Under the pieces are notes generated by a model that had not been told where the DNA came from, searched no databases, and saw nothing but the letters and a program-made list of their open reading frames with translations. 39,031 bases of DNA from a virus, in UHGV virus genome UHGV-0112814. One strand, 5' to 3'. How positions within the stretch are numbered: the stretch's first letter is position 1; each line of letters begins with the position of its first letter. Positions 86-5,508 of the stretch are shown one piece after another. Both the position numbers and the translations under genes were made by a program.

Positions 86-1467
86 ATGCTCACCGTTAAG
101 CAGATTGAAGCAGCAAAGCCGAAAGAAAAACCATACCGCCTTCTCGATGGTAATGGCCTGTACCTTTATGTCCCTGTATCAGGGAAAAAGGTATGGCAGC
201 TTCGCTACAAGATTGACGGTAAGGAGAAAATCCTGACCGTAGGAAAATATCCGCTAATGACTTTGCAGGAAGCAAGAGATAAAGCATGGACCGCGAGGAA
301 AGACATCTCGGTTGGCATCGATCCGGTAAAAGCGAAAAAGGCTTCGTCTAACAACAATTCCTTTAGTGCCATTTACAAGGAATGGTACGAGCACAAGAAG
401 CAAGTCTGGTCAGTAGGCTATGCAACTGAACTTGCCAAAATGTTTGATGACGACATTTTACCCATCATCGGCGGTCTTGAGATTCAGGATATTGAGCCGA
501 TGCAACTGCTGGAAGTAATCCGCAGATTTGAAGATCGCGGTGCAATGGAGCGAGCAAATAAAGCCCGCAGAAGATGCGGCGAGGTTTTCCGTTACGCTAT
601 TGTCACCGGCAGGGCTAAATATAACCCGGCACCTGACCTTGCAGACGCCATGAAAGGATACCGCAAGAAGAACTTCCCGTTTCTTCCTGCAGACCAGATC
701 CCGGCATTCAACAAAGCACTGGCAACATTTTCAGGAAGTATCGTATCGCTCATTGCGACCAAAGTTTTACGCTACACAGCCCTAAGAACGAAAGAGCTTC
801 GCTCCATGCAATGGAAGAACGTCGATTTTGAAAACAGGATTATCACCATCGACGCCAGTGTGATGAAGGGACGCAAAATTCATGTGGTTCCTATGTCAGA
901 CCGTTTCTTCCTGCAGACCAGATCCCGGCATTCAACAAAGCACTGGCAACATTTTCAGGAAGTATCGTATCGCTCATTGCGACCAAAGTTTTACGCTACA
1001 CAGCCCTAAGAACGAAAGAGCTTCGCTCCATGCAATGGAAGAACGTCGATTTTGAAAACAGGATTATCACCATCGACGCCAGTGTGATGAAGGGACGCAA
1101 AATTCATGTGGTTCCTATGTCAGACCAGGTGGTTGAACTTCTCACTACGCTAAGCTCAATCACCAAACCAGTATCAGAGTTTGTTTTTGCCGGGCGCAAC
1201 GATAAGAAGAAGCCAATCTGCGAGAACGCGGTACTGCTTGTGATCAAACAAATCGGCTATGAGGGTCTGGAAAGCGGTCACGGATTCAGGCATGAATTCA
1301 GCACGATTATGAACGAGCACGAATGGCCTGCTGATGCTATTGAAGTGCAACTGGCACATGCCAACGGCGGATCTGTGCGCGGGATTTACAACCATGCTCA
1401 GTATCTCGATAAGCGCAGAGAAATGATGCAGTGGTGGGCGGACTGGCTTGATGGGAAGGCGGGCTAA
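86..1467 (+). pseudogene. int: P4/IntS-type tyrosine integrase, reading frame broken by an internal 224-bp tandem duplication (N-terminal fragment ends at stop 1007-1009; C-terminal fragment resumes as ORF 1030..1467)
   Basis: ORF 50..1009 and ORF 1030..1467 share the peptide MQWKNVDFENRIITIDASVMKGRKIHVVPMSD; the second ORF continues into a tyrosine-recombinase C-terminus (HGFRHEF ... GIYNHAQY). ATG at 86 (MLTVKQIEAAKP) preferred over the track start at 50. 224 is not a multiple of 3, so the frame shifts. Confidence 0.85.
677..1124 (+). repeat. Perfect direct tandem duplication, 2 x 224 bp (copy 1 677..900, copy 2 901..1124), with 2-bp CC microhomology at the junction
   Basis: The string ccgtttcttcctgcagaccagatcccggc ... 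gttcctatgtcaga occurs twice back to back, identical by eye. Confidence 0.9.
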
Positions 1468-1754
1468 CCAACTTTGCTATATCGCGGACAGCACAACGCC
1501 TGGCAATCCAGTGTAAAGCTTTGTGCGTATGAGTTTTGTATCGTTACGATCCACACTCCCAGAGAACTATACCATATAGCCCACCTACATCGTATAGTTG
1601 CGTTTTAATGTTGCCAATACCTAACGTATTGTGAGATCTTAGTATTCTCTATAGATAAACAAGGTTTAATGATATCATAATTTCAAATTATTATAGTTGT
1701 TTAATTGTTTGATTTTTAAACTCATTATTAAAATACACTATCAAGGTGATTTAA

Positions 1755-2804
1755 TTGAAACTTAATGATATTTTAAAGAAAGAAAATAACAATATAGATA
1801 TATTCAGAGTCATAGCTGCATGTCTGGTTATATGGGGACACGCTTATGTAATATCACCTGAAGTTGGGAAAAGTGATTTTATCACTTACCTTTTACCTCA
1901 CGACACTAGCGGTTCTATTGCAGTTAAAATATTCTTTTTCTTAAGTGGCTTAGTTGTTACTAACTCGATATTAACAACAAATAGTCCAATAAAATTTATT
2001 GCATCGAGATTTTTCAGGATATGGCCTGCTTTATTTTTCACATGTATTATTTGTGCATATATCATAGGGCCAATCGTTTCGACTCTTCCTTTGAAAGAGT
2101 ATTTCAATCCTGAAAACAGGATTTACCTTTATGTGTTTAACAATATATCGATGATAACGCAATACAATCTCCCCGGAGTTTTCTTGGATAATCCACACCC
2201 CATAAGTGTAAACGGTTCTTTATGGACAATTCCTTACGAGGTATATGCATATATAATTCTTTTATGTCTGTTTTGTATTGGGATTTACAAAAAACCGCTG
2301 CTAGTAGCATTTTTGGCTGTGGCAATAACATTTGAGTCTGTTTCTAAAATAAAAATTGTTTTTTTTAGCACACCATCTAACCCAGAAGTGCCAATGCTTG
2401 CGGCATGTTTTGCGTTCGGCTCAGTATTGGCCGCATATAAAAATGTAATTTCAATAACGTTAAAAACCTTTATCTCCCTATGGATATTGTATATTCTCCT
2501 TATTGATAACCCATATTCAATGTATCTATCCTATGCGGCAATCTTTATTGCCATACTATACTTATCAAAAACAAACACACTATTAAAGATTAAGCCAAAA
2601 GCTGACATATCCTATGGTGTGTATCTTTGGGGCTTTCCTGTTCAGCAAATCATAGCAATGTATTTTCTTAATAAAGGGGTGCTTTTTAACCAAATCTTAT
2701 CGATTTTTATATGCATAGTTCTTGGTTGGGCGTCATGGCACTTGGTAGAGAAAAGATTTATAAATCTCGGAAAGTTGGTGGGGAACCGCTTATCAGGTAA
2801 ATAA
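1755..2804 (+). CDS. oac: Integral membrane acyltransferase (acyltransferase-3 family), O-antigen acetylase-like serotype-conversion moron; TTG start
   Basis: 349 aa, highly hydrophobic multi-pass protein with an N-terminal IDIFRVIAACLVIWGHAY-type motif typical of acyltransferase-3 enzymes; very AT-rich by eye; sits between int and tailspike as oac does in Sf6-type phages. RBS aggtga upstream of TTG. Confidence 0.7.
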   Translation: MKLNDILKKENNNIDIFRVIAACLVIWGHAYVISPEVGKSDFITYLLPHDTSGSIAVKIFFFLSGLVVTNSILTTNSPIKFIASRFFRIWPALFFTCIICAYIIGPIVSTLPLKEYFNPENRIYLYVFNNISMITQYNLPGVFLDNPHPISVNGSLWTIPYEVYAYIILLCLFCIGIYKKPLLVAFLAVAITFESVSKIKIVFFSTPSNPEVPMLAACFAFGSVLAAYKNVISITLKTFISLWILYILLIDNPYSMYLSYAAIFIAILYLSKTNTLLKIKPKADISYGVYLWGFPVQQIIAMYFLNKGVLFNQILSIFICIVLGWASWHLVEKRFINLGKLVGNRLSGK

Positions 2805-2855
2805 ATCTACCCCCCCCACACAATTCCTGTGAGAACGTGGTGGTGGGGGTAGGTA

Positions 2856-5126
2856 TTACAAGCAAGCAGTTAACGGGAATGCAGTGTCTCCAATGTTAAG
2901 GACGACAGCAGCGATATCAATAGCAAAAACAGTACCGACAGGAAGGTTAATATTGACAATAACCTTTTCTTGTGTATCTAGAGAAGCACCTGGCGACATT
3001 TGGGCCACCCTGAAGTGAATAAACCTTCTGTAAAAATTCCCATCGTTTGGTATTGATACTACATTGTCACCCGAGCTTGCAAACCCTCCATTAACAGAAA
3101 CTACTGTTCCAGTGATGCCGCCAACTCCGCCAGCAGTAAACGTTTTAGCATAAAAAGAAAGGCACACATTACACCCCTGAATTTTGGCAGGAGAGATATC
3201 TAATTCAAATTGTAGCTGAAGATATGTTTGATCTGTAGCAGGTGATGTGCATAGTAACTGGAATGCATTTCTTTGCATATCTAATCGGTTTCGCTCATAT
3301 CCTCCTGCTGCAGTATTATTAGTAGTCCTTTTAGTTAGAGTAAAGCTACCTCCGGTTCCATCTGAAACGGCAGTCAACCCGCTTATTCCGAAATTACTAT
3401 TTATAGGAGCAGCGCCAACATATCCATTAATAATATCTGATGCATCCGAAATCTTCACTAGATTTTTTACTCTGCTTTTATATGAAGGCTTGTAAACAGA
3501 TGCGTACTCAGGCTCAATAAGATATCCAATATTATTTAAATTACCATCGTATCTAATAGTGCCAATATCCCAGTTTTTGTGACCAATAATTTCAGGAGAT
3601 TCAATTAACGGGTAGTGATAATGCACAAATGTTGCTTTATCAATAGACAAATCCTCTAATGCTAAATTATTTCCAAATATGAAATATCTACTTACGTGTT
3701 CAGTATTACCCATATTTGCATAACTACCATTTACTGTTAATCTTTTTACAAATGTAGATGCACCATTATCAACCATTCCGGCACCGCCATCGGCCTTACT
3801 GCCTGTAAAATATGGGTCATCATCATATGATAGCTGGATGCATTTAATTACCTCCCCTTCCTCTGGGCCAAATGGTTTCTCTGAGTAGAAATTTAGAAGT
3901 GTTACATCTGCACAACCAGCTGAAATGATAACATCAGTAAGCATGCCATTGTTTGCTCCTCCTTCAATAACCGTGCGCCAACCGCTAATCCAGTAAGCTA
4001 TCCCGCCACGCGACCAGCCAACACCTTCCACCTTATTGTTTGTTGCCGTCAACAATGTACTCCAAAGATCAACAACTTTACCAAGAACATGATCTTCGTA
4101 GTAACCAGGGCAGCGCACAAAGTTTCGTGTATTCACCCTATCAGCTATGAAATCGGTATGGGCCTCGAACAAGCAATCCCTTACCGATACCCTCCAGTTG
4201 TTAAATTCGGCATTAACAGCCCAGGAGCCATCTCCGCCAAACGCACGGAATTCGCAATTAGATACATCGCAATAAGTTACCCAATGAGCAAAATTTATTG
4301 CATATCCTGATGTTGCCCCCCCCTTAAAAACAGCACCTTCAATACTGTAGTGCTTATTAAACGGGGTCTTACCAGTAGCTCCGTTGTAGTCTCCGCTTAG
4401 ATCATATGGGCCCATGTTAAAGGCGTTTCCTGAGCCTAAGTAATGGAATACAGTTCCTTCGCAGATAATTCTTACCGGTCTGGTGAAATGCATGTCTTTA
4501 GAATATGAGATTGTACCTGGTGGGAATAGCACTCCAACAGGAATTCCATCAGTATTAGGTATCGCGTTCACATACTCCACGAAAGCGTTGATCGCATCAG
4601 TAGAGTCAGTACCATCCATCTTTACACCAAAGTCCTGTGGTGTGATGAAATCCTGATTTTTATCGTGTTGCGTCCTGTGTATTGCACCAATCGCAGGGAG
4701 GTGAACACCAATCAGCGCATCACCCTTTGTATCGTCATCGATATAACTGCCATCTTGAGCAAGCTGGTCTTTGAAGTCAGGACCAAACTGATCAGGGTCA
4801 TACTTCAGCACGTTAGGGAAATAGAACTGCTGAGCACCGTACGCATCATAAACAGCCATAGAATGGCCTTGCACAGTTACGAACTTGGCAATCTGTCCGT
4901 TATATACGGGGTAACCAGCAGCGTTAATGATGATTGGTTGCGATACAGGAACGTGAGAGCCGTCTTCGTTCTCTACATAAACCTGAATCTGGTTTTCAGG
5001 ATTTACCGGGTCAGTGTCAATTTTACCGATATAAATTTTGCCATTGGCTACGGCTTTAAAAGAACGAGCCATAGTGAAGAGTTGCGAAGGCATGCTGACC
5101 ACAACATTTGCGGTGATATCTGACAT
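2856..5126 (-). CDS. Tailspike protein with P22-type N-terminal head-binding domain and a divergent receptor-binding body
   Basis: N-terminus [59 protein letters not shown] closely matches the P22 gp9 N-terminus. Start moved to ATG at 5126 (the track start at 5174 adds 16 aa). Confidence 0.9.
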
Positions 5127-5151
5127 TTCATTGCTCCAGACGAATGATATG

Positions 5152-5174
5152 ATGCAATCATGATGTGATTGCAT
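5152..5174. promoter_or_regulatory. Candidate operator: inverted repeat atgcaatca-tgatg-tgattgcat between the tailspike start and mnt
   Basis: Perfect 9-bp half-sites with a 5-bp spacer in the 120-bp divergent intergenic region. Confidence 0.4.
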
Positions 5175-5247
5175 ACCGAAATGGTACTATTGAGTATTTA
5201 TCCAGTAGGTTACGATGCCATTCCACCCAACTGGTGAGACATCAAGG

Positions 5248-5508
5248 ATGTACAGCAAATACGACGAGGCGCAGTTTCACTTGAGACTTCCGCATGAACT
5301 CCACGCGAAAATTAAGCAGCGTGCGAAGATGAATAACAGGTCGCTGAACTCAGAGATAATTGCAGCGATTGAAGAATCATTGGCTAAACAAAGCTCTGCA
5401 TCAGTTTACATTGACGATGCAGAGCGTATGGCAGAACAACAATCTGATATGGTTAAGAAAATTGTCTTTGATACGCTCAAGGAGCTATATAAAAAAGACA
5501 GCAACTAA
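5248..5508 (+). CDS. mnt: Mnt-like ribbon-helix-helix repressor
   Basis: FHLRLPHELHAKIKQRAKMNNRSLNSEII ... DDAERMAEQQSDMVKKIVFDTLKELYKK aligns with P22 Mnt; transcribed opposite to the late genes as in P22. Start ambiguous between 5215 and 5248. Confidence 0.8.
   Translation: MYSKYDEAQFHLRLPHELHAKIKQRAKMNNRSLNSEIIAAIEESLAKQSSASVYIDDAERMAEQQSDMVKKIVFDTLKELYKKDSN

Follow-up and report, generated by a model that had tools for sequence, protein, structure and literature searches.

Chimeric tailspikes, in which a conserved anchor carries a swapped receptor-binding part, are textbook biology. The swapping of receptor-binding domains (RBDs) among Lederberg-, Uetake- and other viruses and the prediction of serogroups from the hosts of prophages are both established (Pas et al. 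2023, PMC10408124), conversion genes are known to be mobile between phage types (PMC2629481), and in Sf6, BTP1 and phiV10 acetylation of the O-antigen blocks the phage's own tailspike (PMC9558356). A modification gene may also lie behind the gene for the receptor-binding protein (RBP), and joint movement of the two as one block is not described there (PMC10408124); nor is the movement of an RBP part together with a modification gene reported in PMC2629481 or in the other literature matches, a weak negative as coverage was incomplete. Here we analyse a tailspike gene in the virus genome UHGV-0112814, whose full 39,031 nucleotides we call the window. In our judgement this is likely to be the tailspike of a P22-like prophage of the argW site, whose receptor-binding body forms, with a spacer and a neighbouring acyltransferase gene, one exchangeable cassette, with the O71 O-antigen of Escherichia coli as the likely receptor; of this, the domain layout, the boundaries of the block and the association with O71 hosts are shown directly.

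Among described systems, gp14 and Oac of the Shigella phage Sf6 (Lederbergvirus) have the same gene order of tailspike, convergent AT3-only acetyltransferase and int, and the likeness to gp14 runs from the head-binding domain (92% identical) through the neck and beta-helix cap to residue ~192. There is no sequence similarity after that point, however, and the window protein is 756 rather than 623 amino acids (aa) long, has a C-terminal domain that is predicted to resemble carbohydrate-binding modules, is accompanied by an acyltransferase only 33% identical to Sf6 Oac, and is predicted to recognise O71 rather than the S. flexneri Y antigen. P22 gp9, the endorhamnosidase of a Salmonella phage, holds the same position in the P22-like virion gene set and shares the anchor (75% over residues 1–118), but its body is unrelated in sequence, and the window tailspike is therefore not its orthologue. 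In phiV10 (Uetakevirus) the receptor-binding part of the tail fibre and a convergent oac gene are flanked by a conserved anchor and by the lysis genes, and relatives of phiV10 carry the very block of the window, as shown below; its own receptor-binding part is nevertheless unrelated, its Oac matches over 120 residues at only 29% identity, and its anchor is of the phrog_1640 type. For HK620, Det7 gp208, APK14 gp49 and the CBA120 tailspikes, structure-based identity is 9–14% with no shared catalytic signature established.

Anchor, neck and body of the tailspike

The window is a P22-like prophage, 94–96% identical by megablast over its virion genes to CUS-3, Sf101, Kapi1, Sf6 and HK620, and its tailspike gene has the P22-like placement: the genes for ejection proteins and the mnt/arc region precede it, and the conversion genes and int follow. 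Translation from the ATG at 5126, a start common to all homologues and to the RefSeq gene of E. coli TB06053 (WP_052011680.1; 99% identical, 756 aa, annotated 'phage head-binding domain-containing protein'), gives the length of about 756 aa put forward in a first-pass annotation of the sequence. The open reading frame (ORF) extends a further 48 bp upstream (5127–5174) to an ATG at 5174, which could mislead automatic gene callers; the 16 residues that this start would add are present in no homologue.

The same annotation had assigned the first ~110 residues to a P22-type head-binding domain, and residues 1–113 do match Pfam PF09008 (Head_binding) over positions 1–113 of 113 (E 2.8e-67), with 74.6% identity to P22 gp9. 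As in the tailspikes surveyed by Pas et al. 2023 (PMC10408124), a conserved anchor thus precedes an exchangeable RBD. Likeness to described tailspikes stops at ~residue 118 for P22 gp9, at ~192 for Sf6 gp14, at 340 for HK620 (45%) and at 120 for the CUS-3 endosialidase, so that colinear full-length homology, which would have spoken against the chimera originally proposed, was found with none of P22 gp9, Sf6 gp14, HK620 gp9 and the CUS-3 endosialidase.

Table 1. Positions in the window of the tailspike, its domains and the blocks shared with other prophages.
Feature	Position	Strand	Remarks
Tailspike gene	2856..5126	minus	756 aa + stop; ORF and start choice, near-identical RefSeq homologue
Head-binding (virion anchor) domain, residues 1–113	4788..5126	minus	Pfam PF09008 and PDB sequence matches
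Linker/neck, residues 114–154	4665..4787	minus	ends in conserved KGDxLxGV...RTQHDKN motif; holds recombination joint
Predicted right-handed parallel beta-helix, residues ~160–530	3537..4649	minus	structure prediction
C-terminal beta-sandwich (predicted), residues ~566–756	2859..3431	minus	resembles carbohydrate-binding modules; in AT-rich part of gene
Block common to phiV10-like prophages	1743..4673		acyltransferase, spacer and tailspike residues ~153–756; blastn
Near-identical block common to TB06053 prophage	1400..4679		mismatch map; backbone 91–97% identical
AT3-only membrane acyltransferase (oac-like)	1755..2804	plus	349 aa, TTG start, GC 0.34
Spacer between convergent genes	2805..2855		51 bp; G+C-rich hairpin, U-rich tail on minus strand; within shared block

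The body is predicted to form a right-handed parallel beta-helix, as expected of a P22-like tailspike. Searches of Pfam, PHROGs and PDB sequences found nothing past ~residue 227, or ~110 residues into the body query, and no protein from a deposited phage covers at least 80% of the 756 aa; the nearest deposited phage relative of the body (window 2856–4635) is a protein of Aeromonas phage TSW001, at 38% identity. A scan of 1.84 billion protein cluster representatives gave 101 matches to the body at E <=1e-3, of which only about a dozen, none of them characterised, cover most or all of it; the rest share the first 170–270 residues of the helix. Close relatives of the body carry three types of anchor, namely the P22 head-binding domain PF09008 (P0001, P0006, P0011 and P0013), the phiV10/epsilon15-type anchor phrog_1640 (P0002–P0004, 846 aa) and PF18668 Tail_spike_N (P0008–P0010 and P0015, in siphovirus-type contexts), and breakpoints in their identity profiles fall at residues ~130 (P0013, P0017), ~150 (P0002), ~210 (P0011, MSB1_9I) and ~465 (P0006). 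The window tailspike is of the ordinary mosaic kind; its body family is rare.

The block shared with phiV10-like prophages

The evidence for co-acquisition of the body and the acyltransferase gene comes from DNA comparisons and not from composition. By blastn, 2.93 kb of the window (1743–4673) form a single uninterrupted alignment with each of two independent phiV10-like (Uetakevirus) prophage contigs, L004 (97.2%) and L012 (97.5%), in which the tailspike anchor and the flanking genes are unrelated to those of the window. The left end of this block lies ~10 bp upstream of the TTG start of the acyltransferase gene, at its ribosome-binding site, and the right end falls in the tailspike codons between RTQ and HDKN; in the alignment with L004 identity is perfect from the codons CAC GAT AAA AAT (HDKN, H154), and upstream of these only the protein motif is conserved. 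Compared with the TB06053 prophage, there are four differences across ~1400–4679 as against 3–9 per 100 bp in the flanks, the head-binding domain included, and the first differences beyond the joint are at 4680 and 4698 (TB06053, MB46). Both comparisons place the right-hand joint at codons ~149–154 (nt ~4668–4680), and the right boundary is therefore the same in each, ~40 residues beyond the head-binding domain. A joint after that domain had been predicted in the first-pass annotation; it exists, but not at residue ~110.

The comparison of L004 with phiV10 itself points the same way. Homology between the two extends to tailspike residue ~178 and resumes 34 bp past the start of the acyltransferase gene, and between these points the body and the oac gene are both replaced, with the flanks conserved; because the replacement is joint, receptor recognition and receptor modification were exchanged together. 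The suggestion that the two functions had been acquired as one module is in this respect borne out, both by the block common to L004 and L012 and by the TB06053 island, which spans both genes. From these alignments the cassette appears to have moved recently between P22-like and phiV10-like prophages. The exchangeable unit would comprise all tailspike codons from ~153 onwards, the hairpin of the spacer and the acyltransferase gene that converges on the tailspike gene, and recombination probably took place within the codons of the neck motif at one end and at the ribosome-binding site of the acyltransferase gene at the other.

It could be argued that the tailspike and the conversion gene are neighbours only by the standard layout of P22-like and epsilon15-like phages and were acquired separately. 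The layout of tailspike, conversion genes and int is indeed standard (Sf6 and phiV10 annotations; PMC2629481), related bodies are paired with gtrABC-type genes or with another acyltransferase, and oac relatives occur in Aeromonas P2-like prophages without a tailspike. Separate acquisition is nonetheless contradicted for recent history by the single alignment at 97% that runs unbroken across the two genes and their spacer in two lineages of phages whose flanks are unrelated, and by the near-identical island shared with TB06053, and we regard it as very improbable; that L004 and L012 are chimeras of assembly is itself unlikely because two independent samples show the block. Whereas no conserved recombination motifs were found in two temperate genera (PMC10408124), the joint in the window sits in the RTQHDKN codons, and the locus offers a clean case, resolved to the base pair, in which a receptor-binding part has crossed between phage genera in company with a receptor-modifying gene and the joint lies in a conserved neck motif. 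This bears on the engineering of host range by RBD grafting and on the prediction of serotype conversion from prophage sequence.

The gene that travels with the body was already taken for an oac gene in the first-pass annotation, and its product matches both Pfam PF01757 (Acyl_transf_3; E 2.3e-23, positions 1–316 of 326) and phrog_3333 'O-acetyltransferase' (E 1.2e-35). It has no fused SGNH domain and lies within the 330–360 aa range of AT3-only enzymes, and its translation contains R18-X10-H29 and R85-F-F-R88, corresponding to the R/K-X10-H (transmembrane helix 1, TM1) and RXXR motifs that are essential in this acyltransferase family (PMC9558356). Deposited phages contain no closer relative than Sf6 Oac; the nearest foreign acyltransferases, at 62–66%, are from Aeromonas, where they are encoded in P2-like prophages between the repressor and the integrase. 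The body, too, has its nearest outside relative in Aeromonas, with no shared origin shown, and a deeper link in that genus between acyltransferase and tailspike was rejected, as the contexts differ and the P2-like prophages hold no tailspike.

The hairpin of the spacer has folding energies of -26 to -27 kcal/mol (z-scores -2.4 and -2.6) and is a probable terminator of the tailspike transcript; it was not among the calls of a simple terminator scan, and the scans for promoters and terminators performed no better than chance. The hairpin holds a C8/G5 run, and the sole indel relative to TB06053 within the shared block, at 2809, lies inside that run.

Base composition, secondary joints and losses

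The first-pass annotation had also described the distal part of the tailspike gene as more AT-rich, like the adjacent oac gene, and composition along the gene is not uniform. The G+C content at third codon positions (GC3) is 0.40–0.47 over residues 1–400 and 0.17–0.28 over residues 401–680, with one significant change point, after codon 385 (0.431 to 0.267; a likelihood ratio reached by 0 of 1000 permutations). The description thus holds for the last half of the gene and not from the domain border or the joint, since the AT-rich zone starts ~230 codons past the latter, and composition was accordingly rejected as a marker of the joint. For comparison, GC3 is 0.32 in the acyltransferase gene and 0.43–0.56 in the majority of the window's other long ORFs. 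Other members of the body family are likewise low in GC3 in their 3' half, and AT-richness there may be a property of the family rather than the mark of a separate origin.

The same data raise the possibility that the unit acquired was smaller, consisting of the acyltransferase gene and the 3' portion of the tailspike gene that is rich in AT (starting at residue ~385–470, that is, the last rungs of the helix and the beta-sandwich), the N-terminal two-thirds of the helix being older and separate. The shift after codon 385 matches the composition of the acyltransferase gene. In L005 (P0006), moreover, identity is 98–100% to codon ~450–465 and then ~60%, and an unrelated 359-aa Acyl_transf_3 gene follows; a remnant at argW in MSB1_9I (L019, 4.47 Mb) retains exactly int, this L005-type acyltransferase (100%) and a 450-aa fragment that corresponds to a P0006-type tailspike over its C-terminal 449 residues (96%); and identity to P0008 and P0010 also falls after residue ~450. 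The exchange between phage genera, on the other hand, takes the whole body from codon 153, and the low GC3 is shared with other family members. As the origin of the block such a smaller unit seems somewhat unlikely, and it would complement the larger cassette rather than exclude it.

Several findings do count against a cassette that always stays whole. The L005 alignment implies that it is splittable, a second joint at ~residue 465 apparently having swapped the C-terminal part together with the acyltransferase. More distant bodies (58–65% identical) are followed by gtrA/B/C-type genes (L003, L006, L007), and the Aeromonas relatives of the acyltransferase, as noted, have no tailspike nearby. 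In MB46 (L002) the tailspike is kept at 98% nucleotide identity and most of the acyltransferase gene is lost, 849 bp of the window sequence (1655–2503, the promoter region and most of the gene) being replaced by 40 bp (L002 4156–4195). We rejected MB46 as an argument against linkage as such, however, because 300 bp from the 3' end of the acyltransferase gene survive there, which indicates a secondary deletion; this lysogen has presumably lost O-antigen acetylation. Taken together, the L005 swap, the gtr neighbours, the Aeromonas acyltransferases without a tailspike and the MB46 deletion make the cassette a recent, breakable association and not an ancient fixed unit. In lytic-type contexts (L008, L009, L013, L014) nothing follows the tailspike. 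Within the block itself, the first ~200 bp (window 1743–1943) are ~82% identical to L004 and the remainder ~99%, a step suggestive of another recombination joint, within the acyltransferase gene itself.

Predicted O71 receptor and prophage context

The E. coli genomes TB06053 and MB46 have gene clusters annotated with O71-family wzx and wzy. Among 5,426 complete E. coli genomes, O71 wzy is present in 11 and a relative of the body detectable by blastn in three (TB06053, MB46 and MSB1_9I), and all three body carriers are among the 11 (chance p ~6e-9, or ~4e-6 if TB06053 and MB46 are counted as one lineage). Pas et al. 2023 define an RBP subtype by at least 30% identity, at least 60% coverage and a consistent host serogroup, and there is no O71 subtype among their validated serogroups (PMC10408124); for the body family the serogroup is consistent in three of three carrier genomes, representing few lineages only. 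MSB1_9I, which is O71, holds two family members, the argW remnant described above and a diverged P0011-type tailspike beside gtrABC in a separate P22-like prophage (L003, 1.47 Mb), and the two may reflect successive infections on a modified O-antigen. We conclude that the O71 O-antigen of E. coli is the likely receptor. Our search of the literature for an O71 tailspike returned nothing relevant, a weak negative as coverage was incomplete, and the prediction of O71 specificity is useful in being testable.

The tailspikes of P22, Sf6 and HK620 are hydrolases with three conserved carboxylates. Across 16 relatives of the window tailspike, down to 26% identity, D353, E416, R216, Y229, Y260, Y414 and Y469 are invariant and D437 is kept in 15, and by analogy with those hydrolases we propose D353, E416 and D437 as candidate catalytic carboxylates. 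With the host association, their conservation offers indirect support for a homotrimer with O-antigen endoglycosidase activity. It appears unlikely that the body is instead a lyase, a spike that only binds, or an enzyme that acts on some other glycan of the cell surface (capsule or colanic acid, for example): it occurs in O71 hosts only, all temperate relatives examined pair it with modification genes of the O-antigen type (AT3, gtrABC), and it has the three carboxylates.

Other considerations temper both the enzymatic and the receptor assignment. The fold search of the body recovered only the generic pectin-lyase fold, at 9–15% identity to hydrolases, lyases, epimerases and adhesins alike, and no enzyme class can therefore be assigned from it; the structure models are of monomers and derive from shallow alignments of 13–16 sequences. 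In the O-antigen region TB06053 and MB46 share their protein accessions and appear to be clonal, so the O71 link draws on two or three lineages. That link was drawn from carriers among complete genomes, with the hosts of the window, L004 and L012 lying outside it, and the presence of a prophage is a record of past infection of that host, not of enzyme specificity.

Under the reading that we favour, of an O71-directed tailspike whose body belongs to an exchangeable cassette, residues 1–113 would dock the trimer onto the tail, followed by a short neck ending in RTQHDKN. The beta-helix (residues ~160–530) would bind and probably hydrolyse the host O-polysaccharide, with D353, E416 and D437 as its putative catalytic residues, and the beta-sandwich (residues ~566–756) would cap the trimer and may bind sugar. 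Hydrolase chemistry, the target of acetylation and a function in exclusion are what we infer beyond the alignments. In the lysogen, on the precedents of Sf6 and phiV10, the acyltransferase most likely O-acetylates the same O-antigen that the tailspike attacks, and serotype conversion and a block to re-adsorption would follow, both being effects of the Oac proteins of those two phages.

It is tempting to go further and to propose an 'attack and shield' specificity cassette that hops as a unit between Lederbergvirus and Uetakevirus, with the neck motif encoding RTQHDKN as a portable recombination site; this we put forward tentatively, as a possibility that falls somewhat short of an even chance. 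Were such a cassette general, a linked tailspike could reveal what an uncharacterised acyltransferase or GtrC acts on, and vice versa, and the three tailspike variants of O71 hosts, whose modification genes all differ, would be a record of an arms race on one O-antigen.

In complete genomes the same element lies at the tRNA-Arg (argW)/yfdC site, in the order int, acyltransferase, tailspike (convergent), mnt-like repressor and ejection proteins. The window contains no tRNA genes and no Rfam families. At 5215–5508 it encodes a 97-aa protein with an Arc-like ribbon-helix-helix and a C-terminal Mnt domain, and between this gene and the tailspike it is without the antirepressor (ant) or arc gene that MB46 and L005 have; prophages that are otherwise alike therefore differ in their immI region. 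Finally, the int gene (50–1467) contains a perfect tandem duplication of 224 bp (677–900 = 901–1124; window 677–1124), which shifts the frame and splits the integrase into ORFs at 50–1009 and 1030–1467. In TB06053, MB46 and L005 the segment is present once and the 385-aa IntS is intact, and the duplication reflects either a defective prophage or an artefact of assembly.
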